A stretch of DNA of 60,906 bases. It comes from Candidatus Falkowbacteria bacterium. Its GTDB lineage: Bacteria > Patescibacteriota > Patescibacteriia > JAACEG01. Shown here piece after piece: positions 1,409-20,647 of this stretch; within the stretch, counting starts at the first letter, position 1; every line of letters starts with the position of its first letter. The notes under the pieces were generated by a model. The model ran no database searches. It was not told the DNA's origin and worked only from the letters and a program-made list of their open reading frames with translations. The translations under genes and the position numbers were made by a program. Location: contig JABIDK010000003.1 in the NCBI GenBank assembly GCA_018651725.1, positions 1-60,906 on the forward strand, given 5' to 3'.

Positions 1409-3583
1409 TTAAATTTTTAACTTTACAAAAAAAGTGCTTCCTTTTCCAGTGCCTTCGCTTTCTACCCAAATTTTTCCTTTGTGAGCCTCTACTACCTTAC
1501 GGCTAAAGTACATACCAAGACCAAGGCCCTCAGTATGAACCAAGGTCACCTTTTTTCCACGTCTAAACTTTTGAAAAATACTTGATAAATCTTCTTTCTC
1601 CACGCCCATACCGGTATCAGATACGGAAATTAATGCGTATTTCTTTTTGTTTTCAATAATAGTTTTAAGTTCAAGTGTTACATTTCCTTTTTCAGTATAT
1701 TTTATAGCGTTATCTATTAAATTAGAAACAACCTCTTTAATTTTTGTTTCATCTATATTTACCTCTGGCATATTTTTAAAACACAAGTATTTTAATTTCA
1801 ATCCCTTCTCCTTAACCATTGGTTTAAATTCTTCAATGATATTTTTAGTAAAATTTTCAAGATTTGATTTTTGAAAAGTAAATACCATCCTTCCACTTTC
1901 AATTCTGGAGATATTAAGAAGATCCTCTACAAGACCGGCCATACGATCAGAGCTTTTACCCACTTTTCGCAGAGCTTCACTTGGGCCCTTGGTAAGTCTC
2001 CCATAGTCTCCTTCAAGAATCATGGAAAGATAACCTCTAATAGCCGTAATTGGGGTGCGAAGCTGATGAGAAGCAATAGAAATAAACTCTGACTTGGCTT
2101 TATCGAGTTTTTTAAGCTGTTTGTTCATTTTTCGCAATTTAGCTGTAGCTTTTCTAACTTCTTCTTTCATTTTCTCTCCAAACATTTGCGTTTCTCTGTA
2201 CAAAGAAGCATTTTCCAGGGCAACAGCCGATTGATTGGAGATAATTCGAAGTACATTAATATCCTGATTACTATAAGCGGCGTTATCGATTTTTGGACCT
2301 AAAAATATTATTCCAATTAAGTCTTTTTTCACAACTAAAGGTAAAATAATTTCCAGCCCGCTACCATTAGAGCTCTTTTTAATATTTAACAAGCATTTTA
2401 TTTCCTGCTGATCTATAGATTGTTTTATTTTTTCATCTATTTCTTGTAAAACAAGTGGCTCCGGAAATTTACTTAAATACTTAGTTAAACTTTTATTTTT
2501 TATAAACTGTAATCTTTCATCTTTTTTACACCCCACTAGTTTAAGCGGAATAAATTCATTTTTCCTTAAATCAACAGACCATAAACTAAGTTTTTCAATC
2601 TGCAAAGCCTTTTGCGTATTATCAACAATCAAATCAATAAGTTGTTGAATATTCAAAACTTCCGGTATTTTCCTAATTAAATCTCGTAAAATATTTTCTT
2701 CTGTGTAAAGTGAAGCGAAAAAATATTTATTAAAAAATTTCTCCAACAAATTCTTAAGCGGAATAAACGCCAAAACACATAAAGAAAAAATAGCAATCGC
2801 AATAAAAAATATAAAAAGATTTATATCGTAATTAATCAAACGACCAACAAGTAACACGCTAGGAGCAGAAACAGCAATCAAAATAACCAAAGCCGAAAAT
2901 ATAACCGCTCCCTTCCGAATAACCACCCGAATATCCATAAGACGGTAACGAGTGATAGCGTAGGCTGAAAAACCAATAAAAAATAAAGAGCTTGGTGCGT
3001 CTAAAAGAGTTAAATCATAAACACCAAATAATGGCAATAATAAGCTAAAAAGAGAACCACTAATACTATAACAAATTAACCCCAGCAACGAATACCTTAA
3101 TTGTGATTTTCTTATTGAATTAGCTTTTTTACTCTCTGAGTAAAGAACCCATACAACAAAAAGACTAAAGAGGAAAATAAAAATTGAATAATAAGGAAAA
3201 AGAGCTCCTACTTTCCCTTTATAACCCAGAATAGTTAAATAATCTATTTCTTTAATAATTAAGTCATCAACGAAAGACAAAAAAGCAAAACATAAGCCTG
3301 GTGATATAATCAAAAAAATTTTAAATTTAGATAATTTTCTTTCTAACAGCTCATAAACCCATAATAATCCAAATCCAGGCAACATAACAGCCAAGGCAAA
3401 GGCCCATTTTACAGTTTCAATAGTAGGGTTAAAGCGAAAGAAAAAATCAAAAAAACACAGCAAAGCGGCATTTAAAGTAAAAATCCCAAATAAATAATTC
3501 AATTTTTTCGTTTTGTTCCTCCACCAAACTAAAAATCCTAGAAATAGGTTTAATAATCCGGCAACGAAAATTAACCAATTCAT
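1409..3583 (-). CDS. membrane sensor histidine kinase (multi-TM N-terminus, GAF-like middle, HisKA + HATPase_c)
   Basis: About 8 hydrophobic segments in the first ~280 aa. H-box SIASHQLRTPITAIRGY, N-box NLIDNAIKYT, G1 DTGMGV, G2 GLGLGM. No response regulator is adjacent. Confidence 0.85.
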   Translation of the reverse strand: MNWLIFVAGLLNLFLGFLVWWRNKTKKLNYLFGIFTLNAALLCFFDFFFRFNPTIETVKWAFALAVMLPGFGLLWVYELLERKLSKFKIFLIISPGLCFAFLSFVDDLIIKEIDYLTILGYKGKVGALFPYYSIFIFLFSLFVVWVLYSESKKANSIRKSQLRYSLLGLICYSISGSLFSLLLPLFGVYDLTLLDAPSSLFFIGFSAYAITRYRLMDIRVVIRKGAVIFSALVILIAVSAPSVLLVGRLINYDINLFIFFIAIAIFSLCVLAFIPLKNLLEKFFNKYFFASLYTEENILRDLIRKIPEVLNIQQLIDLIVDNTQKALQIEKLSLWSVDLRKNEFIPLKLVGCKKDERLQFIKNKSLTKYLSKFPEPLVLQEIDEKIKQSIDQQEIKCLLNIKKSSNGSGLEIILPLVVKKDLIGIIFLGPKIDNAAYSNQDINVLRIISNQSAVALENASLYRETQMFGEKMKEEVRKATAKLRKMNKQLKKLDKAKSEFISIASHQLRTPITAIRGYLSMILEGDYGRLTKGPSEALRKVGKSSDRMAGLVEDLLNISRIESGRMVFTFQKSNLENFTKNIIEEFKPMVKEKGLKLKYLCFKNMPEVNIDETKIKEVVSNLIDNAIKYTEKGNVTLELKTIIENKKKYALISVSDTGMGVEKEDLSSIFQKFRRGKKVTLVHTEGLGLGMYFSRKVVEAHKGKIWVESEGTGKGSTFFVKLKI

Positions 3584-7231: not shown

Positions 7232-8335
7232 TTATCTTCTGCGTAGAATTCGTGAATAATAGTTTCTCCCTAAAATATTTATCATAATATCATTAACTTT
7301 CTCATTTGTCTTTGCTTTTTTAGCTGCTTCAAATACAAAATAAATAGCAAAAATCATTTTATTATAAAAAGCGTCTGAGCCTAAGATAATTTTTTTACTG
7401 CCGATCAACTCTATAAAATTTTTAATTAATTTTGGCGAAACTCCGGCTGTGTCGAAATAGATGTTATTGTTATTCTCAATTATTTTTTTAGCTAATTTAT
7501 AATTTATTTTATTTAACCCAAAGTGACCCAAGTGAGCGATAACCACTGGAATGTTTAAATCAAATATTTCGCTTTTGCCATTTTCATCACAAAAATTTTC
7601 AAGTAAAGCGTTGTTGTTTGCTCTTTTAAAGTTTTGATATTTTTTATCAGGAAAATTTGTGTAAAAAGAGGTGCCACCATGAAACAATAAATACAAACTA
7701 TATTTTTCTGCCATCTTGTAGATAACTTTCAATCTCTCGGCAATTTCTTGGGGATTATCTTTTGGCAACGGCTTGAAGCCCTGTAAGTTAGGATGCAATT
7801 TAATTCCAACTATTTTATATTTTTCTATATAATATTTAACTCTTTCTTCGATTTTATTTTTGTCTATTCTATGGACATCAAAAGAACCTAAAAGTAAAAA
7901 CTTTTTATTGCTGTAATATTTTCCAGACCACTCTGTATTTATCCAAGGCTCTACAGGCAAAAACACAGCTTCGTCTACCAAAGATTTTTCCATTTCCTCC
8001 AAAGCTCTTTTTTCACTGGTTTTAGAGTATAGTTTTTTAATTTCATGATTAACTGTTTTTGGGAAAAATTTAAAAGCATTCTTTGACAAAATAGTGGCTG
8101 TTTTGTTAAATTTTAACATTTCAGACAAACCAGGCTTGCGGTAATCAATTTTCTTATTTTCTAAATTTTCTTTTAAATAAAGTTCTCCTGAATATTCTTC
8201 TCTATAATCATAATAATGAGCCGCGCCCATAACATCAAAAGGATGGACATGAGTATCCACAATTTTTAAGTCATTTTCCTTCTTTAATTTTTGAAGATAG
8301 ACTAAAAATTCTTTTTTGATATTAAAATTAAACAT
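7232..8335 (-). CDS. amidohydrolase-2 / TIM-barrel metal-dependent hydrolase family protein
   Basis: N-terminal DTHVHPFD metal-binding motif, plus later HGG and AHLGH histidines. The ORF-track start at 8356 is a TTG. The ATG at 8335 has GGAGGG 13 nt upstream, so I use 8335. Confidence 0.65.
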   Translation of the reverse strand: MFNFNIKKEFLVYLQKLKKENDLKIVDTHVHPFDVMGAAHYYDYREEYSGELYLKENLENKKIDYRKPGLSEMLKFNKTATILSKNAFKFFPKTVNHEIKKLYSKTSEKRALEEMEKSLVDEAVFLPVEPWINTEWSGKYYSNKKFLLLGSFDVHRIDKNKIEERVKYYIEKYKIVGIKLHPNLQGFKPLPKDNPQEIAERLKVIYKMAEKYSLYLLFHGGTSFYTNFPDKKYQNFKRANNNALLENFCDENGKSEIFDLNIPVVIAHLGHFGLNKINYKLAKKIIENNNNIYFDTAGVSPKLIKNFIELIGSKKIILGSDAFYNKMIFAIYFVFEAAKKAKTNEKVNDIMINILGRNYYSRILRRR

Positions 8336-8394
8336 AGTTAAAAAATATCCCTCCAAATTAACAAATCCATCCAGCTAACAAATAACTTGTTATT

Positions 8395-8403
8395 ATCATA
8401 CCA
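8395..8403 (-). promoter_or_regulatory. extended -10 promoter element (TGgTATGAT on the minus strand) for the amidohydrolase gene
   Basis: The minus strand reads ttttttGGTATGATaataac about 60 nt upstream of ATG 8335. Confidence 0.4.
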
Positions 8404-8549
8404 AAAAACTTTAATTTAGGCAAAAAATTAATAAATTTTTGTAAAATTAAACAAAAACTAGTTAAAAAATTTATTTTTAAAACTAATTTAAACACTAGAA
8501 TATACTTTTACGCCACACTAAACATTCTAGCTTAACGACAATATAGGTG

Positions 8550-8578
8550 TTGACTTTCACAAAAAATTGATGCATAAT
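8550..8578 (+). promoter_or_regulatory. sigma70-type promoter of the ABC-F / peptide / radical SAM operon
   Basis: TTGACT (8550-8555), 17-nt spacer, CATAAT (8573-8578), with TG immediately upstream. Confidence 0.6.
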
Positions 8579-8583
8579 TTAAC

Positions 8584-8610
8584 AAAATAACTTTTGGTTA
8601 TTTTTTGTTT
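8584..8610 (+). promoter_or_regulatory. leader hairpin plus T-run (possible attenuator) in the 5' UTR of the ABC-F gene
   Basis: aaaataac (8584-8591) pairs with gttatttt (8597-8604), with a 5-nt loop, followed by ttgttt. The stem is AU-rich and therefore weak. Confidence 0.3.
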
Positions 8611-8662
8611 CGTTCTTTGACATGTTAACATATGAGAAAATTATTAATACAGAGGTGAGGCT

Positions 8663-10225
8663 ATGGAATTAAAAGTAACTGATCTACGCAAAGAATATGA
8701 CGGCAATATCATTCTAAACGATATTTCTTTTGTTTTGAATGCTGGTCAGAAGGTTGGGTTAGTCGGTTATAATGGGACCGGTAAAACAACTTTACTGAAA
8801 ATTTTATCAAACGAAATGAAAGGTGATGGAGGTAAGGTTCAATTCAGAAAAGGGGTTACCATTGGCTACGTTCCGCAAGATACAAGAATAGCTTCTGAAC
8901 AAAATGTTCGTCAGTATCTATCTTCAGACGAAAACAATATCGCTGATTACAAAATGGAACGAATCTTGAACGGTCTAGATTTATCAGAAGTTGAACTAAA
9001 TACATATTTGCAACAACTTAGTTCGGGACAAAAAAGCAAAGTTTTTTTAGCGAAGATTTTATTAGTAGACCCAAATATCTTGTTATTAGATGAACCAACC
9101 AATAATCTTGATATTGCTGCTCTTGTCTGGCTAGAAAACTTCTTAAAGCAAAGTCTATCTACTTGCTTGATTGTTTCACACGATAGAGTATTTCTGGATA
9201 ATATCGTTAATAAAATTTTTGAATTAAACTGGCAAACAAGAAAATTGACAATTACCAATGGTCGGTATTCTGAATATTTGCAACGCAAAGAAAAAGAATA
9301 CGAGCGTCAGTTATCTGATTTTAACCAACAGCAAAAAGAATTAGCTCGATTATCTAAGGCTGCTGATAACAAGAGACGTGCTGCTAAAAAAGGTTCAAAA
9401 TTCAAAGGTCGAGACAATGACAAGTATAATCGTGGGTTTAAAAGAGATAGAGCTGCTCGTTCTGGGTCAACTGTTAAAGCTTTACAGAAAAGAATTGATG
9501 GGACGACCAAGGTGTCAGAACCAATATCTCGTGATTTGTTTAAAATCACGATTAATGATTACAAGCCAATCGGAACAACTGATATTTCTTTTTTTGAAGC
9601 AATAGTTGGTTACAGAGATTTTTTTCAATTAAAGAAATTTTCTCTAAACATTCCTTTTGGAAGTAGAGTTGTGTTTTTAGGATCTAACGGTGCTGGAAAG
9701 TCAACAATCATTAAAACAATATCAGGAGAAAATAACCTTTTGTTCGGTAGAAAAAAAATTGGCAATGGTCTAATTATTGGAAATTTAGCTCAAGAGCATC
9801 AAAATTTACCCTTGAACAAAAAACTGCTTGATTTCTTATCGGAAAAATGTGAACTTTCTATCCAAGAGACTTATCATTTGATAAAAAAATTTGGATTCAA
9901 AGCCGATGATGTTCAGAAACAAATCTGTAATTTTTCTCCTGGTGAAAGGGCTAGGATTCTATTGGCCACTTTCTCTGCCTTATCTGTAAATGTTCTATTA
10001 TTGGATGAACCAACCAATCATCTTGACCTGGAAGCTTTGATCGCCGTGGAAAAATCAATTAAAGAATTCTCTGGTACAATTATTTTGGTTTCGCACGATC
10101 GATACTTTCTGAGAAAATTTAACCCGACTCATATATTTTCTATCGATAACTATAAGATTATTTCCGAAAGAGATATTGAGTCCTACTTACAAAAAGCTGA
10201 AGAAAAAGGAAAATATTCATGGTGA
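8663..10225 (+). CDS. ABC-F family ATPase (two fused NBDs, no TM domain, long basic linker)
   Basis: Walker A GYNGTGKTT and GSNGAGKST; signatures LSSGQKSK and FSPGERAR; Walker B LLLDEPTN twice. The ~80-aa K/R-rich inter-domain linker runs QRKEKEYERQ..KRRAAKKGSKFKGRDNDKYNRGFKRDRAARSG. SD GAGGTGAGG lies upstream. Confidence 0.9.
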   Translation: MELKVTDLRKEYDGNIILNDISFVLNAGQKVGLVGYNGTGKTTLLKILSNEMKGDGGKVQFRKGVTIGYVPQDTRIASEQNVRQYLSSDENNIADYKMERILNGLDLSEVELNTYLQQLSSGQKSKVFLAKILLVDPNILLLDEPTNNLDIAALVWLENFLKQSLSTCLIVSHDRVFLDNIVNKIFELNWQTRKLTITNGRYSEYLQRKEKEYERQLSDFNQQQKELARLSKAADNKRRAAKKGSKFKGRDNDKYNRGFKRDRAARSGSTVKALQKRIDGTTKVSEPISRDLFKITINDYKPIGTTDISFFEAIVGYRDFFQLKKFSLNIPFGSRVVFLGSNGAGKSTIIKTISGENNLLFGRKKIGNGLIIGNLAQEHQNLPLNKKLLDFLSEKCELSIQETYHLIKKFGFKADDVQKQICNFSPGERARILLATFSALSVNVLLLDEPTNHLDLEALIAVEKSIKEFSGTIILVSHDRYFLRKFNPTHIFSIDNYKIISERDIESYLQKAEEKGKYSW

Positions 10226-10268
10226 ATATAACTTTCAAATCAGCACATAACAACACGGAGGTGTTATT

Positions 10269-10460
10269 ATGAAAACCCAAAAGCAGTACCGGAAACCCAA
10301 GGTGACCAGTAGTGGAAGCACGCCTGAACCAATTGAAGCTGGCTGTTGCTTAACCAGCTGTGGAGGTTCACCGGCTGTGATGCAATCCAGTGATGCCTTA
10401 CAGGAAGATATCGCTATGGTCAAAACTGTTGTTTCAGATGCCAAAAAAGATCTGGGATAA
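10269..10460 (+). CDS. 63-aa Cys-containing small peptide, candidate RiPP precursor
   Basis: GGAGG lies 7 nt upstream of the ATG. The gene sits 43 nt after the ABC-F stop and immediately upstream of an RRE-fused radical SAM gene. Sequence: MKTQKQYRKPKVTSSGSTPEPIEAGCCLTSCGGSPAVMQSSDALQEDIAMVKTVVSDAKKDLG. Confidence 0.6.
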   Translation: MKTQKQYRKPKVTSSGSTPEPIEAGCCLTSCGGSPAVMQSSDALQEDIAMVKTVVSDAKKDLG

Positions 10461-10475
10461 TACAATTCTCAACGG

Positions 10476-10507
10476 TAACGACATGTCAACAGATCGACAT
10501 GTCGTTA
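10476..10507 (+). promoter_or_regulatory. perfect 12-bp inverted repeat (stem-loop) between the peptide gene and the radical SAM gene
   Basis: taacgacatgtc (10476-10487), 8-nt loop, gacatgtcgtta (10496-10507). No T-run follows. It covers the first in-frame ATG (10499). Confidence 0.6.
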
Positions 10508-10525
10508 TCAATAAAGGTGAATGAA

Positions 10526-11746
10526 ATGAAAGTTAAAATCAGACAGGAAGAAGGAGAATATCTTGCATATTTTCTGGATTCCCGTCGACTAGTTGGAGTA
10601 AACAAAATTGGCTCTGTAATTTTGAACCAACTGTTTAATGAGAGTAAAAAAATCAAAGCTATCACTGCCGAAATCTCAACTCAGTACGACATACCGTTAT
10701 CAGAAGTTAGAAAAGACGCTATTGATTTTTTAACGGCTCTTGATAAAGAAATGCTACCTGATGGTTTTGCAGTTATCGATCAAAAACAGATGAAGGCGCC
10801 ATTGGGCGTGGAGTTAGAAATAACTACAGCTTGTAACTTGCGATGTAAACATTGTATCCAAGATGGTGGTCATCATAATGTTTCTATGAAATTTTCAAAA
10901 GTTCAATCTATTATTGATACTTTGTCCAAGGCCGGTGTCTGTGAAGTTAGTCTAATTGGTGGCGAACCTTTTCTCCATAAAGATATTTTGGCTATTATCG
11001 AATATTGTCAAAATGCCGACATGACTGTAAACGTTGTTACTAACAGCACTCTACTCACCGATGATATCGTTTCCGAATTATCTAAGTTTAAAAGACTTTC
11101 TTTACTGGTGAGCTTGGATGGTATCAGCGATGTGCATGACTATATCCGGGGAGATGGTGTTTTCATAAAAGTTTCCGATGTACTTCGAAAACTTAAGAAA
11201 AATAAAATTGCCGTTGAAACCTTATGTACATTAAATAGTTTCAATATTACCAATTACCGAGAAGTTTTGGATTACTGTCATAACTTGAAAATTCCATGCA
11301 ACTTTAATCTGTTTAAACCATTCTCTGAAAAACATCGAAAGCTCACTCTTCATCCTCATGATTTTTTTGATACAATCATAGAATTACTTGATCTTAGACA
11401 AAATCATGGATATAGAGTTGGTCTTTCGAATGCAGCTATTATCGCTGAGTTGTTTGAACTACCGGACCGAAATGAATGTCGCGCAACACGATCTGGCCTA
11501 GTAATTGATGTTCGAGGAAGAATGATTACTTGTCCATCTCTGGTCGCAACTGGATTCTATGATGCCATAAAATTGCCCGAATTTAGTGATAATTTTCTTG
11601 ATGATTGGAAAAATCATCCAGTGTTTATTGATTTTCAACAGAAAGGATTAAGAGAATGCCAAGCACGGGCAATGATTTTCAGCCAAGATGTTAACGGTGC
11701 GGATCCTTACGGGATAACCGCTTTTAAAAAATATTTTTATGGATAA
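10526..11746 (+). CDS. radical SAM enzyme with N-terminal PqqD-like peptide-recognition domain and a short Cys-containing C-terminal (Twitch/SPASM-like) region
   Basis: CNLRCKHC (CxxxCxxC), GGEPF, and a PqqD-like N-domain (LDSRRLVGVNKIGSVILNQLF..DAIDFLTALDKE). C-terminal cysteines are CRATRSGLVIDVRGRMITC plus a later ECQ. The ATG at 10526 has AAAGGTG 7 nt upstream. The ORF-track start at 10499 lies inside the hairpin and has no SD. Confidence 0.8.
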   Translation: MKVKIRQEEGEYLAYFLDSRRLVGVNKIGSVILNQLFNESKKIKAITAEISTQYDIPLSEVRKDAIDFLTALDKEMLPDGFAVIDQKQMKAPLGVELEITTACNLRCKHCIQDGGHHNVSMKFSKVQSIIDTLSKAGVCEVSLIGGEPFLHKDILAIIEYCQNADMTVNVVTNSTLLTDDIVSELSKFKRLSLLVSLDGISDVHDYIRGDGVFIKVSDVLRKLKKNKIAVETLCTLNSFNITNYREVLDYCHNLKIPCNFNLFKPFSEKHRKLTLHPHDFFDTIIELLDLRQNHGYRVGLSNAAIIAELFELPDRNECRATRSGLVIDVRGRMITCPSLVATGFYDAIKLPEFSDNFLDDWKNHPVFIDFQQKGLRECQARAMIFSQDVNGADPYGITAFKKYFYG

Positions 11747-11771
11747 TCATATGAAGTACCCCAATATGGTT

Positions 11772-11803
11772 GCGGTCAGTTTAGATAAACTGACCGCTTT
11801 TTT
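11772..11803 (+). terminator. rho-independent terminator of the ABC-F/peptide/rSAM operon
   Basis: gcggtcagttt (11772-11782), agat loop, aaactgaccgc (11787-11797), then tttttt. Confidence 0.8.
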
Positions 11804-12452
11804 ATAATTTTAAATTTATTTGATCAACTGAAGTGCTAGTCAAAATTTTTAATGAATAATCTGTATTTGTTTCTAAAAAATTTTTCACAATCTTGAAGCC
11901 TAAAACATAACCAGCCCACTTAGGAATATTTTCTTTTTCCGAACCCTTTAAAAACCAAATTTCGTAATCTTGTTCATTAAATTTTTTATGAGCTATTTTT
12001 TTAAATTTTTCTAATAAGAAATTAAATTCTTCTTTTTTAATCGGCGTAATCCATTCCGATAATTCTCCTGTCATTTGATAAACAAAAAAATCAGCCAAAC
12101 CCTCACTAAACACGCTTTCTAAAAAAGATGACTTGTCAATCTCTATTCCTGCTTGTCTACGCAAAGCATGATGTAATTCATGCCATAATGCTTTTTCAAT
12201 ATTTTTTTCAAAAATTTTTTGATTAATATCAAAACTTATTTGAATAAAATTACCAGCAGGACAATAAGCCCCTATTCCGCTTAAGTCTTTTAATAGTTCC
12301 GGATTCTCAGCTTCTTTAAAAGTAATATTAATTTCCTTAAAAGAAAATAAAGTTTTGAGTTTTTTTTCAACATTATTAACAACTCTTTTGACTTTTTCTT
12401 CTAAAAAAGTTAAATGCCCAGAATCATTTAAAATTTTAATTTTTAATTTCAT
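11802..12452 (-). CDS. putative zinc metallopeptidase (HExxH; DUF2268-like pattern)
   Basis: LWHELHHALRRQ (HExxH), followed by SEGLADFF. Cytoplasmic, with no signal peptide. The family call is by pattern only. Confidence 0.4.
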   Translation of the reverse strand: MKLKIKILNDSGHLTFLEEKVKRVVNNVEKKLKTLFSFKEINITFKEAENPELLKDLSGIGAYCPAGNFIQISFDINQKIFEKNIEKALWHELHHALRRQAGIEIDKSSFLESVFSEGLADFFVYQMTGELSEWITPIKKEEFNFLLEKFKKIAHKKFNEQDYEIWFLKGSEKENIPKWAGYVLGFKIVKNFLETNTDYSLKILTSTSVDQINLKL

Positions 12453-12474
12453 GGTACTATAATTTTATTTTTAT

Positions 12475-12647
12475 CTATTCTCTTTTAAATGAAGCTCCAC
12501 CTCATATTCTTCCCTCTAATCATAATAATGAGCCTCTCCTATAACACCAAAATGATGGACATGAGTATCCACGATTTTTAAGTCATTTTCCTTCTTTAAT
12601 TTTTGAAGATAGACTAAAAATTCTTGTTTGATATTAAAACTAAGTAT
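12475..12647 (-). pseudogene. decayed duplicate of the 5' end (about 57 codons) of the amidohydrolase gene at 7232-8335
   Basis: 12504-12647 aligns without gaps to 8192-8335, with 12 mismatches in 144 nt by hand count. Weaker similarity continues to about 12475. The start codon is ATA instead of ATG, and there is an in-frame TAA after ..HLKENR. Confidence 0.8.
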
Positions 12648-12654
12648 AACTATT

Positions 12655-15600
12655 TTAAACTTTAACAACCGCAAGTATGACTTCGTCTTTGTTTATTTTT
12701 ACTGTTTTTGTATCTTCAGTGTCTTTGTCTATACCTTTAATAATTTCTTTAGCTAAAACATCTTTTAGGAGTTCTTGTTTCAACTTTTTATCTGTTAGGA
12801 CTTTTTTTATGTCTTTACTTTTAGTTTCGTAATATACTTTTATATTATCCTGAATTACAAAGCCTTTATTTTTTCTAATGTTATTAATAACTCTTACCAT
12901 CTCTCGCTTAATGCCTTCCAATTTTAATTCCTCGGTGATTTTAGTGTCTAGATCAATAATAATTCCGCTTTCAACTTTCTTAAATATAATTTTTTTTACA
13001 TTAAGTTCATCTTTTAATAAATCTAGATAATCTTTTTTATCTTTTATTGTTATAAGTTCTAGATCTGGAGTTTTTACAATCAAAGATACTAAAGGCTGAC
13101 GTATTTTGATTCCGTATTCATCTCTTTTTGCTAAACCTACCTCAACTAATTTTCTTACTGTTCCCATCCTAATTAACTCATCGTTATCAAAATTATCTGC
13201 AATGGGAAAAGATTCTAAATGTACAGACTTATCAACATCTTCAAAATTATTACCCGTCACCTTTTGCCAAACTTGCTCGGCAATAAAAGGCGTAAATGGC
13301 GCCATTATTTTTGAAAGTTCTGTTAATACAAATTTTGTTGTAGCCAAAGCTGCTTGTTTATCGTTTTCATCCTCCCCCTTAAATCTATCTCTTGATCTTC
13401 TGATATACCAGGTTGATAAATCATCGATAAAATCAGCGATTGGTCTGGTTGATTTCGGTAAGTGATAAGCGTTCATATTTTCTGTTACCTCTTGTATCAA
13501 TTGATCAAGTCTTGCTAAAATCCATTTATCTAAAACATTTTTACTCTTACATTTTTTAGTTTTTAATTCACCTTCAAATAAGTCATAAAATTTCACTACA
13601 TTCCATAAAATCATTACGACTTTACGAAAAGATTCTTTGACTCCGTCTTCAGAAAAATTCAAGTTATCGGCCTGCACAATATTTGATGTCATTAAATAAT
13701 AACGAAGAGCATCAGCTCCATACTGATCAAAAAGAAGCGATGGGTCAGGATAATTTTGCAATCTTTTGGCCATTTTTTTGCCATCTTCAGCCAAAACTAT
13801 ACCGTTTACAATTACATTGTTAAAAGTATGGCCGTCTTTAATTGCTGTACCGATTAAATGCAAATAATAAAACCAAGCCCTGCATTGGTCTTGTCCCTCA
13901 GCAATAAACTCAGCTGGGAAATTTTTATCAAACTTTTCTTTATTTTCAAATGGATAATGCATCTGTGCGTAAGGCATTGAACCACTATCAAACCAAGTGT
14001 CGAGCACATCCGGGATTCTTGTCATCTCTCCATTACATTTAACACATCCAAATTTTATTTTATCTACGATATGTTTATGCAAATCAGTAATTTTTTCATT
14101 GCTATCTTTTTCCAATTCTTTTACAGAACCAAATACTTTTATTTCTTCACATTTATTACACTTCCAAATCGGCATCACCGATGCCCAAAATCTCTGCCGA
14201 GAAATTGACCAATCGCGAGCACCTTCTAACCAGTTACCAAAACGACCTTCTTTGATGTGAGCTGGCGACCAATTAATTTCTTTAGCTGTTTCTAGGCTTC
14301 TTTTTTTGATTTTTGTAACATTTACAAACCAAGAGCTAGTTGCATAATTGATTAAAGGTGTATCACAGCGCCAACAATGCGGATAACTGTGTTCATATTT
14401 TTCTTTATGGAACAATAAATTATTATGAGCCAAATATTTTATAATTTCAATATCGGTACTCATATGATTATCCTTTGGCTTGACATTAAGCCCTTGGAAA
14501 TCTTTTACTTCACTTTTGAAATTTCCATCCATTGTTAAATGTTGGACAAAAGGCAAACTATACTCCTTGCCTAAATTCATATCATCCTCACCAAAAGCCG
14601 GAGCGATGTGTACTACTCCGGTTCCATCTTCAGTAGTCACAAAATCCGCTGAGTAAATTTTCCAACCATTTTCTCTGTTTTCCAGTTTTTTATCGCTTGA
14701 ATAATAATCAAATAATGGTTTATATTTTTTACCAATTAAATCTTTACCTTTAAACTTTTTATTTTTAACAAAATCACTAACTGCTAAATACAACAACTTA
14801 TGTAATTTATTATCGCTACTTTTATCTTTCTTGGCTATTTCTTTAGAAAATATATATTTACCAGGGCTTACATCAAGTTCCATGCCATATTTTTCTGGTT
14901 TAAAATCACTTGGAATTTCGACCTCTAAATAATCAATATCCTTACCAACTGCCAACGCTACATTTCCGATAAGCGTCCAAGGCGTAGTTGTCCAGGCTAA
15001 AATATATGTTCCGGGTTCATCGAGTAATTCAAATTTTGCAGTTGCTGATAGATCCTTAATATCTGCATAGCCTTCGGTTACCTCTGACTGTGAAAGAGTT
15101 GTTTCACATCGCGGGCAAACATGCATTGAACGATAGCCTTCGTAAATTAAGTCTTTGTCCCAAAGTTGTTTAAACACCCACCAGATAGACTCCATATAAT
15201 CCAAATCCATTGTGCTATAAGCATTGTCCATATCCGCCCAACGACCAAGGCGCTTAATCACTTTCTCCCATTCATCAACATAACTTAAAACCTTTGACCT
15301 ACAAAGTTCGTTAAATTTAGTGACTCCTGCTTTTTCAATATCTTTTTTACTTTTTGAGCCCAATTCTTTTTCCACAATATTTTCAATCGGCAGACCATGG
15401 CAGTCCCAACCCCATTTTCTTTCTACTCGTTTTCCTTGCATCGTCCAATACCGCGGAATTACATCTTTCATAACTGATCCGACGATATGTCCATAATGTG
15501 GGGTACCGGTAGCAAATGGAGGTCCATCGTAAAAAACATAATCCCCCTTCGGCGCCTCTCTTTCAACACTTTTTTCAAATATTTTATTTTTCTCCCAAAA

Positions 15601-15669
15601 AGCCAAAACATCCTCTTCCATTTTAGAGAATGCGTTTACTGGCTTTTTTTGACTATCTTTTTTTAACAT
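12655..15669 (-). CDS. ileS: isoleucyl-tRNA synthetase, type 2 (eukaryote-like) form
   Basis: HIGH motif PHYGHIVG, KMSKS-variant KKMAKRLQNYPDP, and WCISRQR-like WSISRQRFW. The ORF-track start at 15675 is TTG. The ATG at 15669 is preceded by GGAGGA within the aspS stop region. Confidence 0.9.
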   Translation of the reverse strand: MLKKDSQKKPVNAFSKMEEDVLAFWEKNKIFEKSVEREAPKGDYVFYDGPPFATGTPHYGHIVGSVMKDVIPRYWTMQGKRVERKWGWDCHGLPIENIVEKELGSKSKKDIEKAGVTKFNELCRSKVLSYVDEWEKVIKRLGRWADMDNAYSTMDLDYMESIWWVFKQLWDKDLIYEGYRSMHVCPRCETTLSQSEVTEGYADIKDLSATAKFELLDEPGTYILAWTTTPWTLIGNVALAVGKDIDYLEVEIPSDFKPEKYGMELDVSPGKYIFSKEIAKKDKSSDNKLHKLLYLAVSDFVKNKKFKGKDLIGKKYKPLFDYYSSDKKLENRENGWKIYSADFVTTEDGTGVVHIAPAFGEDDMNLGKEYSLPFVQHLTMDGNFKSEVKDFQGLNVKPKDNHMSTDIEIIKYLAHNNLLFHKEKYEHSYPHCWRCDTPLINYATSSWFVNVTKIKKRSLETAKEINWSPAHIKEGRFGNWLEGARDWSISRQRFWASVMPIWKCNKCEEIKVFGSVKELEKDSNEKITDLHKHIVDKIKFGCVKCNGEMTRIPDVLDTWFDSGSMPYAQMHYPFENKEKFDKNFPAEFIAEGQDQCRAWFYYLHLIGTAIKDGHTFNNVIVNGIVLAEDGKKMAKRLQNYPDPSLLFDQYGADALRYYLMTSNIVQADNLNFSEDGVKESFRKVVMILWNVVKFYDLFEGELKTKKCKSKNVLDKWILARLDQLIQEVTENMNAYHLPKSTRPIADFIDDLSTWYIRRSRDRFKGEDENDKQAALATTKFVLTELSKIMAPFTPFIAEQVWQKVTGNNFEDVDKSVHLESFPIADNFDNDELIRMGTVRKLVEVGLAKRDEYGIKIRQPLVSLIVKTPDLELITIKDKKDYLDLLKDELNVKKIIFKKVESGIIIDLDTKITEELKLEGIKREMVRVINNIRKNKGFVIQDNIKVYYETKSKDIKKVLTDKKLKQELLKDVLAKEIIKGIDKDTEDTKTVKINKDEVILAVVKV

Positions 15670-15675
15670 ACACAA

Positions 15676-17466
15676 TTAATCCTCCATTACTTTAATATTT
15701 ACCTCTTTTAATTGTTTGTCATGAACTTTGCTTGGGCTGTCCATCATTACATCTCGACCTTGGCCGTCTTTTGGGAAGGCGTAGATATCGCGGATTGAGT
15801 GCCAGTCTTTTAAGACCATTAAAATCCTATCGATGCCCGGGGCGTTTCCGCCGTGTGGTGGAGCGCCGTATTCAAAGGCTCGAAGCATTGCTCCGAACTC
15901 AGCGTCCACTTCTTCTTTAGAGTAACCGGCTATTCTGAAAGCTTCGTACATAATCTCCGGGCTGTGATTTCGAATTGCCCCGGAGGAAACTTCAAAGCCG
16001 TTTAAAATTAAATCGTATTGATAACCTAAAATCTCAAGTGGTTCTTGTTCTTTTAAGGCTTTTAATCCTCCTTGCGGCATTGAAAATGGATTATGAGAAA
16101 AATCAATTCTACCTTGTTCTATCTCTGAATAATCATACATTGGAAAATCAACTACCCAGGCCCAGGCTGCTTTTTTATTATCTTTCAAGCCTAATCTTTT
16201 CCCACATTCATCACGAACAACGCCAAGAGCTTCACACACCACTCTCCATTTATCTGCTCCAAAGAAAATTATATCTCCTTCTTTCGCCTCTACTTCTTTG
16301 ACAATTTGCTCGGCTAAATCATCGCCTAAAAATTTAACTATCGGAGACTGTAATTTGTTATTTTCTTTTACAATGATATAAGCAAGACCTTTAGCTCCTT
16401 TAGCTTGAGCGAGTTCAGTTAATTCATCGATTTCTTTTCTACTGAACTTAGCTCCGCCATCCACCTTAAGAGCTCTGACTACTCCACCATTTTTTACTGC
16501 CCCGGAGAAAACACCAAATCCGCAGTCTTTTACTAATCCGGTAACACTTTTTATCTTTAAATCAAATCGTAAATCAGGCTTATCTGATCCATACACCTCC
16601 ATTGCTTCGCGCCAAGGAATCTGTACGAATCGTTTATTTTTATCCAAATTTATTATTTTCTTTTTACTAAATTTATCTGTCAGCTCTATCATTAACGGCT
16701 CCATAATTTTAAAGACATCTTCTTGTTCCACAAAACTCATCTCCATATCCAATTGATAAAACTCTCCATAATGCCTGTCTACTCTGGGATCTTCATCCCG
16801 AAAACATGGAGCAATTTGAAAATACTTATCAACTCCACCAACCATTAAAAGCTGTTTAAACTGCTGCGGCGCTTGCGGAAGAGCATAAAATTTACCGGGA
16901 TAATATCTGCTTGGAACCAAAAAATCTCTAGCCCCTTCCGGAGAAGAGTTAGCAAGAATTGGGGTTTGAACCTCTGTAAAATCTTTTTTATGAAAATAAT
17001 TTCTAATACAACTCATGAAAGCATCTTTAGTTGTTAACATTTCTTGAATTTTCGGGCGACGTAAATCTATAAATCGATACTTTAATCTAATATGCTCACT
17101 AGCTTCTTGAGCTTTATCTTCATCCAGTTCAAACGGCGGGGTTTTGGATTTATTTAAATATTCAATTTCAAAACACTCTATCTCAATTTCCCCAGTGCTC
17201 ATTTTCTTATTGATCATATCTTTTGGCCTTGCCACAACTTCTCCTTCAACTTTAATAACCCACTCACTTCTAAGCTTGTCAGCTTTTTCCCAAGCTTGTT
17301 TGTTTGCTTCCGGATCAAAAGTAAGTTGTGTCAAACCGTACTTATCACGCAAATCAATAAAAATAATACCACCATGATCACGGCGCCTGTGCACCCAGCC
17401 GGTTAAAATTACTTTCTTTTTAACATTTTTTTTATTTAACTCCCCACAAGTGTGTGTTCTTAACAT
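15676..17466 (-). CDS. aspS: aspartyl-tRNA synthetase (bacterial type with GAD insertion)
   Basis: MLRTHTCGEL start, FRDEDPRVDR, QLDMEMSF, GAPPHGG and GIDR class II motifs. Confidence 0.92.
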   Translation of the reverse strand: MLRTHTCGELNKKNVKKKVILTGWVHRRRDHGGIIFIDLRDKYGLTQLTFDPEANKQAWEKADKLRSEWVIKVEGEVVARPKDMINKKMSTGEIEIECFEIEYLNKSKTPPFELDEDKAQEASEHIRLKYRFIDLRRPKIQEMLTTKDAFMSCIRNYFHKKDFTEVQTPILANSSPEGARDFLVPSRYYPGKFYALPQAPQQFKQLLMVGGVDKYFQIAPCFRDEDPRVDRHYGEFYQLDMEMSFVEQEDVFKIMEPLMIELTDKFSKKKIINLDKNKRFVQIPWREAMEVYGSDKPDLRFDLKIKSVTGLVKDCGFGVFSGAVKNGGVVRALKVDGGAKFSRKEIDELTELAQAKGAKGLAYIIVKENNKLQSPIVKFLGDDLAEQIVKEVEAKEGDIIFFGADKWRVVCEALGVVRDECGKRLGLKDNKKAAWAWVVDFPMYDYSEIEQGRIDFSHNPFSMPQGGLKALKEQEPLEILGYQYDLILNGFEVSSGAIRNHSPEIMYEAFRIAGYSKEEVDAEFGAMLRAFEYGAPPHGGNAPGIDRILMVLKDWHSIRDIYAFPKDGQGRDVMMDSPSKVHDKQLKEVNIKVMED

Positions 17467-17483
17467 AAAAAAATTATTTCAAT

Positions 17484-19529
17484 TTACCCTCTTAGTTGAG
17501 CATTAAACTCTTTTGAAATTTTAGTTACTATTTTATCGGTTATTAAATTTATTTCTTTATCTAGCAAGGTTTTTTTCTTTGATTGTAAAACCAAATGAAA
17601 AGCTATACTTTTTTTGTTGCTAGCCATCCCCTTTCCTTTGTAAACATCAAACAGTTCACATTCTTTAAATAAATCTTTGGAAATTTCTTTAACTCTACTT
17701 TCTATTTGCGCCCACTCCTGATTTTTTTCAACTACAAAGGCAAAATCTCTTGTTACCGACGGGTACTTTGGAATACCACTATAAGATACTACTACTTTTT
17801 TAATTATCTTGTATAAAGCGTCAAAGTTTATCTCTAAAGCAGCGGTTTCTTTTTTTATACCTGCCAGCTCTTTGGCTTTATTTGATACTAATCCTAAGGT
17901 GGCGATTTTTTCTTCTTTATAAGAAATTATCGTTGAAGAGCCTACCTGGTAAGGATCCTTAATATTATCCTTTTTATATTGAATATCGTCTTTGTTGATT
18001 TTTGTTTTTGCTAATAAATATTCCCAAACACCTTTTAACTCATAAAATACATCTTCTTTTTTATCCCCATTAACCAGAAGAGCTAAATTGCTTTGCTCTA
18101 TTGGTAATGATTTTTCTCCTGTTGGAATATATACTTTATTTAATTCAAATAATCTTAATTTAGGAGTTAATGTTTCATTTTTTGAAGCTATATCGATCAT
18201 TGTTGAAGCCATCTCTGTTTTCATGTATTTAAAATCATCTGTTAACGGATTTAAAAGCTCGATTGTATCTTCCGGCCTAACTCCGGCTATTTCAAGTTGC
18301 TTATCGGAAATCATTGAATAGGAAAAAGTCTCCGTAAAGCCCACTCCAACTAAAATATCTTTTATTTTATCCTCCCAAACAAGATTTTCCAAAGGTTTTA
18401 CAGTCGGAATCTCACCACTCGGCAGTTCGCTTGGGATTTTATGATATCCATAAATCCTGGCCACCTCTTCCACTAAATCATAGTCTTCTTTAACATCCTC
18501 TGTTCTAAAATAAGGGACTGTCACTGAAATATAACCGGGTTTTTTTTCGCAAACAAATTCAAGCTTTTCTAAAATTTCCACAATATCGTTATCCGAGATA
18601 GTAACTCCCAGTTTTTTTTCTATTAATTTTGTATTAAATTTTATTTTATTTAATTTAACTTCTTTTTCCAAAGTATCAAAAACAGTTGAAGAAACTTCTC
18701 CTTTAGCCAACTCTTGAATAAGTTGTGCTACTCTTAACAAGGCCGGGTTAGTAGAATAAATATTCAATCCTTTTTCAAATAAAGCCGAGGCATCTGTCCG
18801 AAGATCCAAAAAACGAGCGGTTTTTCGAATTGAATACGGTTCAAAGTTTGCTGATTCTATAACTATTGTTTTTGTTTTTTTAGTTACCTCTGCCTTGATT
18901 CCTCCTTTTACTCCGGCAATGGCGATAGGATTTTTTGCATCAGCGATTACTAGATTACTGTGTGCTAGTTTATATTTACCCCCCCCAAGAGTGGTTATTT
19001 CCTCTTTGTTTTTTGCTTTTCTAATTATAATTATTTTTCCTTCAATTTTATCGTAATCAAAAACATGCGTTGGTTGACCATATTCCAGTAATACATAGTT
19101 AGTAGCATCAACAACATTATTAATTGAGTTCATTCCACTGGCTTCAATTCTTTTTTTAAGCCAATCTGGAGATTCTTTAATCTTAACGTTATCGATCACT
19201 ATGGCCTGATATCTGGGGCAAAGAGTTTTATCTTCAACTTTTAATTTTAAAGACATTTCCTTTTTAATTTTTTGGCTTATCTTTGCTTCCTTGTAAAGAA
19301 ATTCTTTATTTAATATTGCACTTGCTTCTCGAGCTGTGCCGAGAATTGAAGCTGTGTCCGGTCTATTGGGTGTAATTTCCACATCCAATAAATAATCGTC
19401 CAATTTCTTATTATAGTTCCATCGTTCTATGGAAGATCCTGATAAAGAAACCTTTTTAGCGAATTCTTCCGCGCTTAAATTCGTTTTTACATATTCTTTT
19501 ATCCAATTGTATGGTAATGATACATTCAT
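17484..19529 (-). CDS. pheT: phenylalanyl-tRNA synthetase beta subunit, short form lacking the N-terminal OB (tRNA-binding) domain
   Basis: N-terminus NWIKEYV..., then ITPNRPD only ~50 aa in. B3/4, B5 and FDX-ACB-like regions are present. It is 681 aa versus ~800 aa for typical bacterial PheT. Confidence 0.88.
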   Translation of the reverse strand: MNVSLPYNWIKEYVKTNLSAEEFAKKVSLSGSSIERWNYNKKLDDYLLDVEITPNRPDTASILGTAREASAILNKEFLYKEAKISQKIKKEMSLKLKVEDKTLCPRYQAIVIDNVKIKESPDWLKKRIEASGMNSINNVVDATNYVLLEYGQPTHVFDYDKIEGKIIIIRKAKNKEEITTLGGGKYKLAHSNLVIADAKNPIAIAGVKGGIKAEVTKKTKTIVIESANFEPYSIRKTARFLDLRTDASALFEKGLNIYSTNPALLRVAQLIQELAKGEVSSTVFDTLEKEVKLNKIKFNTKLIEKKLGVTISDNDIVEILEKLEFVCEKKPGYISVTVPYFRTEDVKEDYDLVEEVARIYGYHKIPSELPSGEIPTVKPLENLVWEDKIKDILVGVGFTETFSYSMISDKQLEIAGVRPEDTIELLNPLTDDFKYMKTEMASTMIDIASKNETLTPKLRLFELNKVYIPTGEKSLPIEQSNLALLVNGDKKEDVFYELKGVWEYLLAKTKINKDDIQYKKDNIKDPYQVGSSTIISYKEEKIATLGLVSNKAKELAGIKKETAALEINFDALYKIIKKVVVSYSGIPKYPSVTRDFAFVVEKNQEWAQIESRVKEISKDLFKECELFDVYKGKGMASNKKSIAFHLVLQSKKKTLLDKEINLITDKIVTKISKEFNAQLRG

Positions 19530-19532
19530 ATA

Positions 19533-20576
19533 TTAAAACTGCTTTAAAAAACGGATATCGTTTTGATAGATAATTCTAATGTCTTTAATATTAATACCTT
19601 CTTGCATAATTTTATTTCTTTCCACCCCCCAGCCAAAAGCAAAACCGGAATATACTTCAGGATCAATCCCGCCATTTTCCAAAACTTTCGGATGAACCAT
19701 TCCAGCTCCGCCAATCTCTAACCAACCCTCTTTGCATAATCGACATCCTTTTCCATTACACGATCCGCACGAAACATCAATCTCAAAGCTCGGCTCTGTA
19801 AACCTAAAATGATAAGGTCTGATCCTAACTTTTCTTTTTGGACCAAAAAACTCTTTTACAAAATAATCAAGAACCCCTTTCAAGTGAACAATCGTGATAT
19901 CTTTGTCGATCACTAAACCTTCAAATTGATAATGAATAAGAACATGAGAAACATCAAGTTGCCTTCTTGGACACTTTGAAATATTCATCATTCTGATCGG
20001 CATTCTTCCTGTTTCCATTTCTCTTACTTGCCCAGCTGAGGTATGGGGTGTTAAAATTCTTTTTTTGTATTTTGGATCAACATCTTCTTTGTCAATAAAA
20101 AACGTCTCCCATTCATCTCTAGCCGGATGATCTGATGGAAAATTTAAAGCGCCAAAAGCATACCAATCCCACTCTACCTCCGGATATTTAACAGTATAAA
20201 AACCAATCCGCTCAAAAATACGCTTAATCTCTCGAATAGCTTGTGTTGTCAAATGAAGATGACCTTCTTCAATCTTAACTCCCGGAGCCGTTATATCTAT
20301 TTCATCACCAAGGCTGTTACTTTTAATATTTTTTTCCAGTAATTTAACAGACTCGTTTATTTTCTGTTTAATTTCATTGGTTTTCTGGCCGACCTCTTTT
20401 CTATCGTCTTTTGACAAATCTTTTAGCGACCTAAGTATAGCTGTAAACTCTGATTTGCGTGCCAAAAATTTCACCTTAAATTGCTTTAATTCTTCTAAGG
20501 AATTTACGCTCTCAATACTTTTCGCAGCGTCTTCTTCTATTTTATTCAATTGTTGAATCAGTGAATTATTTTTCAT
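19533..20576 (-). CDS. pheS: phenylalanyl-tRNA synthetase alpha subunit
   Basis: HPARDEWETFF, FRFTEPSFE and GAGMVHPKVL class II motifs. The ORF-track start at 20609 is TTG; the first ATG is at 20576. Confidence 0.9.
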   Translation of the reverse strand: MKNNSLIQQLNKIEEDAAKSIESVNSLEELKQFKVKFLARKSEFTAILRSLKDLSKDDRKEVGQKTNEIKQKINESVKLLEKNIKSNSLGDEIDITAPGVKIEEGHLHLTTQAIREIKRIFERIGFYTVKYPEVEWDWYAFGALNFPSDHPARDEWETFFIDKEDVDPKYKKRILTPHTSAGQVREMETGRMPIRMMNISKCPRRQLDVSHVLIHYQFEGLVIDKDITIVHLKGVLDYFVKEFFGPKRKVRIRPYHFRFTEPSFEIDVSCGSCNGKGCRLCKEGWLEIGGAGMVHPKVLENGGIDPEVYSGFAFGWGVERNKIMQEGINIKDIRIIYQNDIRFLKQF

Positions 20577-20647
20577 TTTATTTTTTGATTGTATTAAAGC
20601 ACAATACAAAATTTATTTACTTTAGTCAATTTTATGGAACTACACGC

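Follow-up and report, generated by a model that had tools for sequence, protein, structure and literature searches.

Gene Organization of the Cassette

The window analyzed here (the whole stretch of DNA under study, 60,906 nt of contig JABIDK010000003.1 from Candidatus Falkowbacteria bacterium, assembly GCA_018651725.1) harbors genes for an ABC-F ATPase, a small cysteine-containing peptide and a radical S-adenosylmethionine (rSAM) enzyme, which very probably form a cassette of a new family for a peptide made by the ribosome and modified after its translation (RiPP). The genes and the associated features are shown in Table 1, where all coordinates refer to the forward strand of the window. A preliminary description of the locus had placed the same three genes on one strand at the same positions, had read a GGAGG 7 nt upstream of the 63-aa open reading frame (ORF) and had closed the unit with a strong terminator; all of these were found again, the terminator as a stem at 11772-11797 followed by a T-run. 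The gaps that it gave are also reproduced, the 43 nt between the ABC-F and peptide genes exactly, and the approximately 65 nt of the second gap on condition that 10526 is the start of the enzyme. The longest rSAM ORF begins at 10499, and the ATG at 10526 (MKVKIR...), which has AAGGTG 6 nt upstream, is probably the true start because all enzyme homologues begin at MKVKIR.

The promoter reported at TTGACT-17-CATAAT is present as a sequence, but the view that it is the only one, with no internal promoter, is not supported, as rival sites were observed at 8617-8644 and, with 9/12 matches, at 10433-10466. Promoter-like sites are no more frequent than expected by chance for DNA this rich in AT (23 versus 18.1 ± 4.7 in shuffles), and given this shuffle-level density and the equal or nearly equal alternatives, a single promoter without an internal one is not demonstrable from the sequence.

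Table 1. Positions of the cassette genes, signals and bracketing repeats in the window.
Feature	Position	Strand	Basis
Left copy of 180-nt direct repeat, 5' end of intact amidohydrolase gene (7232-8356, -)	8157-8336
Promoter-like site TTGACT-17-CATAAT, tentative	8550-8578	+	10/12 positions match
Alternative promoter-like site TTGACA-16-AATTAT	8617-8644	+	10/12 positions match
ABC-F ATPase, 520 aa	8663-10225	+	ORF, Pfam, NCBIfam NF000355
Shine-Dalgarno GGAGG of peptide gene, 7 nt before ATG	10257-10261	+	Read from sequence
Precursor peptide, 63 aa	10269-10460	+	ORF, profile/family alignment
Stem-loop between peptide and enzyme genes, 14-bp stem, 8-nt loop	10474-10509	+	Free energy -21.7 kcal/mol, z -5.6
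Radical SAM peptide maturase	10499-11746, likely start 10526	+	ORF, Pfam, homologue alignment, AlphaFold2 (AF2) model
Intrinsic terminator closing the three-gene unit	11772-11803	+	11-bp stem, 6 GC pairs, then TTTTTT
Predicted Zn peptidase (DUF2268, HExxH), its gene convergent with the operon	11802-12452	-	PF10026
Right copy of direct repeat, 87% identical, truncated amidohydrolase 5' fragment (ORF 12516-12674) beside IleRS	12469-12648

A Conserved Precursor Peptide Family

The peptide carries a leader motif (YRKPKV) at residues 7-12, a core (EPIEAGCCLTSCGGSP) at residues 20-35 and a variable follower of 28 aa. The basic N-terminus (+5 within 12 residues) and the central CCxxxC named in the preliminary description were recovered, as was a tail close to the length it gave, whereas the amphipathicity ascribed to this tail is not significant, being reached by 318/2000 shuffles. 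A profile seeded with eight neighbours (a seed alignment of eight sequences) retrieved at least 168 peptide clusters of 48-88 aa, none of which is named, and the motif CC..xCGG is present in all 120 peptide matches listed. The consensus consists of K-Y-x-K-P-x-V, a spacer, EPVE[TAS]GCC[LF][RT]SCGG[S]P and a variable tail of 20-30 aa; family-wide, the leader motif takes the form (Y)xxPx[VIL] and the near-invariant core the form EPVExGCC[LF]xSCGGxP, and a second subtype starts with MKxPKIIKK and finishes with LKKIK. All eight seed sequences share P10, E23, G25, C26, C27, S30, C31, G32, G33 and P35.

Strong purifying selection was observed on the core of the 63-aa ORF, with a mean nonsynonymous value (pN) of 0.20 against a synonymous value (pS) of 0.83 for the 15-codon core over 52 distinct nucleotide versions, and the core is kept across peptide loci whose G+C content ranges from 0.24 to 0.61; a ratio of nonsynonymous to synonymous rates (dN/dS) of about 0.9 for the tail was discarded because the tails do not align. 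The small ORF was also found beside rSAM homologues in 16 of the 17 loci sampled through the rSAM gene, a recurrence on which the preliminary description had made its proposal depend. The 63-aa ORF is a real conserved gene, and it lies nearly always directly upstream of one family of rSAM enzymes carrying a RiPP recognition element (RRE). The YxxPxL motif of lasso-peptide leaders is an RRE-binding element. The leader motif of the present peptide resembles it (PMC10368454). The small ORF was considered as a leader (attenuation) peptide of erm or ABC-F genes and rejected, since it tracks the RRE-rSAM gene and not resistance genes, is 50-80 aa long and has an invariant cysteine core.

Of 19 homologous loci checked, 17 have a comparable stable hairpin behind the peptide gene (median z -3.8), among them L001, L005, L083, L086, L114, L119 and L136; their sequences are unrelated and some are followed by U-runs. 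RiPP operons commonly use a hairpin placed behind the precursor gene to maintain an excess of precursor mRNA, and the stem-loop of the window probably stabilises or attenuates the transcript and so sets the ratio of precursor to enzyme.

Some peptide loci differ in their downstream genes. In L112 (5650-8094), no family rSAM gene lies downstream of a peptide that has this core (ESVESGCCLRSCGGSP); the peptide is followed by an uncharacterised 229-aa protein and then by a different, shorter radical SAM protein (CNNRCEGC). In L155 (774-1770) and L156 (6010-6882), the peptide ORF is intact and only fragments of rSAM and Erm genes are left; these decayed cassettes suggest that some lineages are losing the system.

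A Separate Family of Probable Radical SAM Maturases

The PqqD-like N-terminal domain and the motifs CNLRCKHC and GGEPF noted in the preliminary description are all present in the enzyme, where Pfam detects PqqD (PF05402) at 30.9 bits against a cut-off of 23.4 and Radical_SAM (PF04055) at 70.4 bits against 29.5. RRE/PqqD comes first (about residues 12-84), then the rSAM core, whose cysteines are C112-x3-C116-x2-C119, and last a C-terminal domain that is Twitch-like. The rSAM cysteine triad together with C327, C345 (C327-x17-C345) and C387 is invariant across 51 homologues. The three conserved C-terminal cysteines are Twitch-like, as the preliminary description had proposed, and the window enzyme has no SPASM Pfam match, such a match being found in only 1 of approximately 105 family members; the Twitch-type model NF033640 scores 97.7, under its cut-off of 170. 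The AF2 model (mean confidence, pLDDT, 92) contains a beta3-alpha3 RRE with strands 12-17, 20-25 and 30-34 and helices 36-47, 52-63 and 67-84, and a cysteine-flanked hairpin (333-336/341-343) between C327 and C345, residues that align to the start of the SPASM domain of SuiB.

A search of 5.8 billion proteins returned about 105 enzyme clusters at 39-59% identity, nearly all from Patescibacteria, and the family is sharply bounded, with scores running from 939 down to 234 bits and the next at 87. The named sources are Moranbacteria, Jorgensenbacteria, Berkelbacteria and Saccharibacteria, plus a few metagenome-assembled genomes (MAGs) labelled Clostridia. A scan of a genome collection with the rSAM alignment keyed on generic rSAM motifs, so that 9 of its 80 loci were of the true family and the rest were ignored. 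None of the curated NCBIfam maturase models, ScmE among them, was passed (WgkB 100 versus 650, MftC 93 versus 265, SkfB 67 versus 300 and PapB 71 versus 340 bits). The top sequence match in the PDB is SkfB (2e-17 with the single sequence, 2e-33 with the family profile) and the top fold matches are SuiB, SkfB and CteB, all of which carry an RRE, followed by anSME; mycofactocin and pyrroloquinoline quinone (PQQ) maturases appear among the weak profile and fold matches. By these comparisons the enzyme groups with RiPP maturases and not with cofactor or sulfatase enzymes, the outcome that the preliminary description had favored. If its three conserved C-terminal cysteines are the ligands, a site of the auxiliary cluster would stay open, as in CteB, where a substrate cysteine binds to it. 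The predicted fold and the conserved residues support an RRE-dependent peptide maturase with one auxiliary cluster.

Two known groups of systems come closest to the enzyme and its precursor. SkfB, the maturase of the sporulation killing factor of Bacillus subtilis, has the same layout and size, namely an N-terminal RRE, an rSAM core and a Twitch-type end with one auxiliary cluster, the last of these being putative in the cassette enzyme, and in skf a small cysteine-containing precursor gene likewise lies directly upstream of the enzyme gene; the two precursors are unrelated, and the SkfB model is far from being passed. The skf operon encodes an ABC exporter/immunity pair, and the cell envelope is where its product acts; the cassette has no exporter and carries an ABC-F gene, with or without an Erm gene, instead. 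The ranthipeptide/SCIFF maturases (CteB, PapB) and QhpD resemble the cassette in having highly conserved Cys-rich precursors; the thioethers that they form by an RRE-dependent rSAM reaction, with a substrate cysteine bound at the open site of an auxiliary cluster, would be comparable to the presumed chemistry of the cassette, and CteB ranks high in both the fold and the sequence comparisons. These maturases, however, carry two auxiliary clusters in a complete SPASM domain, in contrast to the three conserved C-terminal cysteines here; the cassette precursor also differs from ranthipeptide precursors, its cysteine motif being central and followed by a tail of 20-30 aa, and its enzyme lies well below the PapB model.

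Apart from these comparisons, some cassettes (L090, 4643-6049, and L002-L004) lie in AT-rich contigs with a Bacillota-type context (IreB, RuvX, EF-P and glycolysis genes) or in Clostridia-labelled MAGs. Unless these are binning errors, the module extends beyond Patescibacteria.

Conservation of the Module across Loci

Loci were sampled via the enzyme and, independently, via the peptide motif in metagenomes, which gave 62 distinct loci. In nearly all of these the peptide gene immediately precedes the enzyme gene, and an ABC-F gene lies within 324 nt in 44/62 loci. It takes one of four positions, either upstream (co-directional, as in the window, or divergent) or downstream (co-directional or convergent). 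The ABC-F gene stands between the peptide and enzyme genes in three of the 44. The flanking genes are otherwise unrelated between loci, and an unbiased clustering of neighbours gave only five recurrent groups, namely the rSAM enzyme (52 loci), the ABC-F protein (43 loci), an Erm-type methyltransferase (9 loci), DUF2268 (8 loci including the window) and a sensor histidine kinase (7 loci). The pairwise identities of the ABC-F and rSAM proteins co-vary (r = 0.79, reached by 0/2000 Mantel permutations). The ABC-F gene is a near-constant third member of the module, and the Erm-type and DUF2268 genes are occasional members. The partnership of the ABC-F protein assumed in the preliminary description is thus genuine in terms of adjacency, variable gene order and shared divergence, yet not exclusive to the cassette.

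Members of the family were searched for in viral contigs and plasmids, where none was found and no sign of phage or plasmid carriage was seen. PADLOC returned only generic ATPase and viperin-type rSAM matches, which give no evidence of a known defence system.

The ABC-F Protein

PF00005 matches the protein twice; it has two nucleotide-binding domains (NBDs) with both Walker B DEPTN motifs intact and has no membrane domain. NF000355 is passed with 407 bits against a cut-off of 380. The named antibiotic-resistance (ARE) subfamilies (Msr, Vga, Lsa, Sal, OptrA, CplR and the producer type) remained below their cut-offs (Msr 281 versus 680; producer type NF000171 254 versus 800), and so did the housekeeping models (EttA 285 versus 599, Uup 238 versus 900, YbiT-type 272 versus 762 and YheS-type 250 versus 917). 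As cassette-linked and unlinked ABC-Fs all pass NF000355 alone, NCBIfam typing cannot separate 'resistance' from 'housekeeping' here.

The NBD1 arm is lacking in the window protein, whose distance from Walker A to the H-loop is 137 aa versus 160-177 aa in most relatives, and the distance from the first H-loop to the second Walker A is 168 aa in all family members, against about 142 aa in YheS and about 175 aa in VmlR2 as taken from the alignments. In the predicted structure the interdomain region forms a helical hairpin at residues 202-280 (helices 202-245 and 251-280), with the linker-tip motif DNDKYNRGFKRDR at residues 251-263, conserved in the family as DNDK[YF]xRG[FY]xRDR. The best fold matches are VmlR2 and PoxtA, with EttA and others close behind, and all top fold matches are ribosome-bound ABC-Fs. 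The best full-length alignment is also to VmlR2 (residues 3-513 in one stretch), and the missing NBD1 arm is a further likeness to VmlR2, VmlR and PoxtA; on the other side, the identity is about 28%, no named ARE cut-off is reached and the tip motif is specific to the Patescibacteria ABC-F family. At 168 aa the linker has the length of ARE linkers and would be able to reach the peptidyl transferase center (PTC) or the exit tunnel.

The same clade of ABC-Fs occurs in a second conserved cassette. Two sister proteins, P0257 and P0332, are each encoded last in a series of four genes, after those for a 61-63-aa cysteine-containing protein, an rSAM/SPASM-like enzyme of 480-510 aa and an MTAP-like phosphorylase, in this order (L098, 3218-7641; L099, 3296-7641; L158, 3373-7644; and L159, 1-4254). 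The small protein contains LCGV[QR]GCCP..GGKV.LTKEQWREA, and the enzyme has its best sub-threshold matches to FibroRumin, QhpD and PapB maturases; neither of the two passes a family model, and an assignment of the small protein as DUF397-like was dropped as it has no Pfam support. This ABC-F family seems generally tied to rSAM/small-peptide modules, which argues against chance adjacency, and the tie seems to reflect either protection or something more generic.

That the peptide-rSAM pair merely lies beside the lineage's ordinary housekeeping ABC-F, with no shared function, is already disfavored and very improbable. It would account for the match to a generic family model only and for the close ABC-F homologues that exist without the cassette's rSAM gene; it does not account for an adjacency kept in 44/62 loci over four gene orders and among unrelated flanks, for the co-varying divergence of the two proteins, or for the place of the window ABC-F inside a repeat-bracketed block, with which it appears to have come. 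Moreover, L091 encodes two ABC-Fs (181-1791 and 8225-9859), each about 31-32% identical to the window protein, and the second, 6 kb from the cassette-linked one, is without the linker-tip motif and more EttA-like (EttA model 366 versus 295 bits).

A separate observation concerns P0243, the closest ABC-F homologue (54% identical), which in L096 (3569-9885) has no rSAM neighbour; its neighbours are genes of HExxH peptidase-like proteins (two Peptidase_MA_2, a 202-aa HEIIH protein and a DUF2268) and a Peptidase_S51 gene.

Erm-Type Methyltransferases and the Proposed Ribosomal Target

Erm homologues were observed in nine distinct cassettes (L006, L088, L101, L103, L140, L147, L148, L150 and L157). 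The three neighbours tested passed the Erm model NF000499 (L147 226, L157 247 and L088 233 bits versus a cut-off of 212), and on the KsgA model they scored 168, 173 and 147 bits, respectively, against a cut-off of 171, in each case lower than on the Erm model. Their arrangements include a co-directional ABC-F, peptide, rSAM and Erm order (L006) and, in L088, an Erm and an ABC-F gene that are separated by 5 nt and converge on the enzyme gene, while in L147 and L157 the Erm gene occurs without an ABC-F gene in view. Erm enzymes modify A2058, which lies at the entrance of the tunnel, and the PTC and tunnel are where resistance factors of the ABC-F type act. The joining of two unrelated determinants for one ribosomal region to one peptide/enzyme pair is the strongest argument that the product acts there, and the nine Erm-bearing cassettes suggest added support for a ribosomal target.

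Comparable immunity genes are found in antibiotic producers. As described in PMC8546547 and PMC10201436, clusters for macrolides, lincosamides and streptogramins carry an ABC-F (OleB, CarA, SrmB, TlrC or LmrC) and/or an A2058 methyltransferase (ErmE/TlrA-type), and the A201A cluster carries Ard1. The cassettes likewise join biosynthetic genes to ABC-F target protection and/or an A2058 methyltransferase, if these genes act as their relatives do. The products of such clusters, unlike the peptide of the cassettes, are polyketides, nucleosides or non-ribosomal compounds of actinomycetes, and the cassette ABC-F does not pass the producer-type model. Among RiPPs, klebsazolicin and phazolicin would be the nearest in site of action, their producers protecting themselves by export pumps. 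They are azole-modified and plug the upper exit tunnel of the 50S subunit (PMC6783444). For the cassette an exit-tunnel site is only implied by Erm and ABC-F, and klebsazolicin and phazolicin are made by YcaO/dehydrogenase chemistry rather than by radical SAM chemistry.

Proposed Mechanism and Alternative Explanations

The undescribed RiPP-type cassette with an ABC-F partner that had been proposed in the preliminary description is supported by the conserved peptide, the maturase-like enzyme and the ABC-F gene in 44/62 loci. On balance we lean towards a composite explanation of its function, in which thioether-type crosslinks are formed in the GCCxxSCGGxP core, the product binds the tunnel/PTC region of the 50S subunit, and the ABC-F protein, with or without Erm, provides self-protection. 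The N-terminal RRE of the enzyme would bind the leader motif (Y)xxPx[VIL], and the three conserved C-terminal cysteines may bind one auxiliary Fe-S cluster and leave a site on it open. The enzyme would then form at least one Cys-derived crosslink in GCC[LF]xSCGGxP, most likely a thioether as made by SkfB and CteB, a chemistry suggested by enzyme similarity only, and the hairpin 3' of the peptide gene would keep precursor mRNA above enzyme mRNA. The mature peptide, possibly trimmed by DUF2268 or by a host peptidase, may bind the large subunit near the PTC or the tunnel entrance (A2058 region), from where the ABC-F protein, with its ARE-length linker and conserved tip, would dislodge it from the producer's ribosomes; in some lineages, Erm methylation would block peptide binding.

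Several results weigh against this composite. The ABC-F gene is clearly absent from L089, L118 and L157, with L112 as an odd case, whereas the other loci without it are cut by contig ends. Neither an exporter nor a dedicated leader protease is conserved in the neighbour clustering, no Erm homologue lies in the window, and Erm genes are limited to about 15% of the loci. The model NF000355 is generic, and no model of a named resistance ABC-F was passed. The ABC-F family is broad, comprising hundreds of Patescibacteria proteins of about 547 aa that are 48-55% identical to the window copy; the three sister proteins inspected (P0243, P0257 and P0332) are not encoded beside the cassette's rSAM family, and unlinked ABC-Fs of about 547 aa nest among the cassette-linked copies in a neighbour-joining tree, which has no outgroup and samples unlinked ABC-Fs only near the window protein, so that it gives no measure of the monophyly of the linked copies. 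Within the 61-kb window no second ABC-F gene was found.

Some of these results would fit a role of the ABC-F protein as a helper or signal, in which the peptide is the true rSAM substrate and the ABC-F rescues ribosomes stalled on the core (GCC..SCGGxP) or, as LmrC does, turns a signal from the ribosome into expression of the cassette, with no protection against a product. The breadth of the ABC-F family, mostly not beside the cassette's rSAM, agrees with this role, as do the second, unrelated rSAM enzyme and small Cys protein, also with a GCC motif, beside the same ABC-F clade, and a linker tip that is the same for both cassette types and would suit a generic role at the ribosome; a signalling ABC-F within a biosynthetic cluster has a precedent in LmrC (PMC8546547). 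This explanation is nevertheless held to be unlikely: it leaves unexplained the Erm-type A2058 methyltransferases of nine cassettes, a few of which seem to take the place of the ABC-F, the ABC-F gene is convergent or divergent in many loci rather than on the same transcript, and there is no documented stalling motif for this sequence.

The lack of a conserved exporter or leader protease also bears on an intracellular function, in which the peptide acts on the cell's own ribosomes as a dormancy- or hibernation-type switch, or serves as a redox or metal cofactor like PQQ or mycofactocin, while the ABC-F or Erm sets or reverses its effect. A near-invariant modified region, as in cofactor-type RiPPs, small-genome episymbionts as hosts, and the mycofactocin and PQQ maturases among the weak matches of the enzyme would all suit such a function. 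The scattered distribution, variable context and insertion signature, however, resemble an accessory conflict module; no partner oxidoreductase is conserved as in cofactor systems, and the pairing of Erm with ABC-F is the classic signature of an antibiotic producer, so an intracellular function is regarded as quite improbable.

Self-protection from a ribosome-binding product is the explanation that we favor. The further claim that these cassettes make the first rSAM-modified peptide antibiotics acting on the exit tunnel or PTC, and that the large Patescibacteria ABC-F family and the associated Erm proteins mainly protect against such peptides, is made tentatively and at somewhat less than even weight. 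A literature search found no description of an ABC-F/Cys-peptide/RRE-rSAM cassette; what is new is the combination of a known enzyme architecture with a known immunity logic, which is not reported for RiPPs. To our knowledge, almost no natural products are known from the phylum Patescibacteria. If the proposed function holds, the cassettes would represent a new RiPP chemotype for a clinically validated target (the 50S tunnel/PTC), spotted through the resistance genes that they carry; ARE-like ABC-F and Erm genes that occur outside pathogens and actinomycetes would gain a natural ligand and an ecological rationale; and, on the further claim, uncultivated episymbionts would at once supply new ribosome inhibitors and harbor a natural pool of ABC-F- and Erm-type resistance. 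With its short precursor, the three-gene module is approachable without culturing the host. Even if the target is wrong, the tie of the ABC-F to two different rSAM/peptide pairs would stand as an unexplained functional association with a translation factor.

Putatively Inserted Block and Surroundings

The two copies of the direct repeat bracket a 4.3-kb block that holds the ABC-F, peptide, rSAM and DUF2268 genes and has a G+C content of 0.33-0.39, against 0.25-0.29 in the flanks. This arrangement looks like the result of recombination and suggests that the four-gene block was inserted, bracketed by a duplicated gene end. The same order of ABC-F, peptide, rSAM and reverse-strand DUF2268 genes recurs in L106 and L104 at about 50% identity. 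The amidohydrolase gene was considered as a part of the cassette and rejected, as its homologue is in no other locus.

The convergent HExxH protein, which the preliminary description had offered as a weak candidate for a leader peptidase, does have the motif, as HELHH, and matches DUF2268 with 95 bits against 23.6; its link to the cassette is real but occasional, with homologues beside the cassette in L088, L102, L104, L106, L118, L125 and L128 (8/63 loci including the window). It is a candidate leader or follower peptidase.

Sensor histidine kinases (HisKA_7TM or HisKA where called by Pfam) were observed a few kb from the cassette in at least 7 loci, their positions being 1409-3583 (-) in the window, L088 (11906-13612) and L091 (14386 to the end), with others in L008, L086, L126, L135, L143 and L153; this recurrence is possibly a regulatory link or chance. 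Next to the block, at 12655-20609 (-), several aminoacyl-tRNA synthetase genes (IleRS, AspRS, PheRS beta and alpha) stand in a row. L084 also has an IleRS gene upstream of its cassette, separated from it by about 2 kb in which TruB and CysRS genes lie. A single ORF of 2825 aa (52303-60780, -) fills the end of the window.

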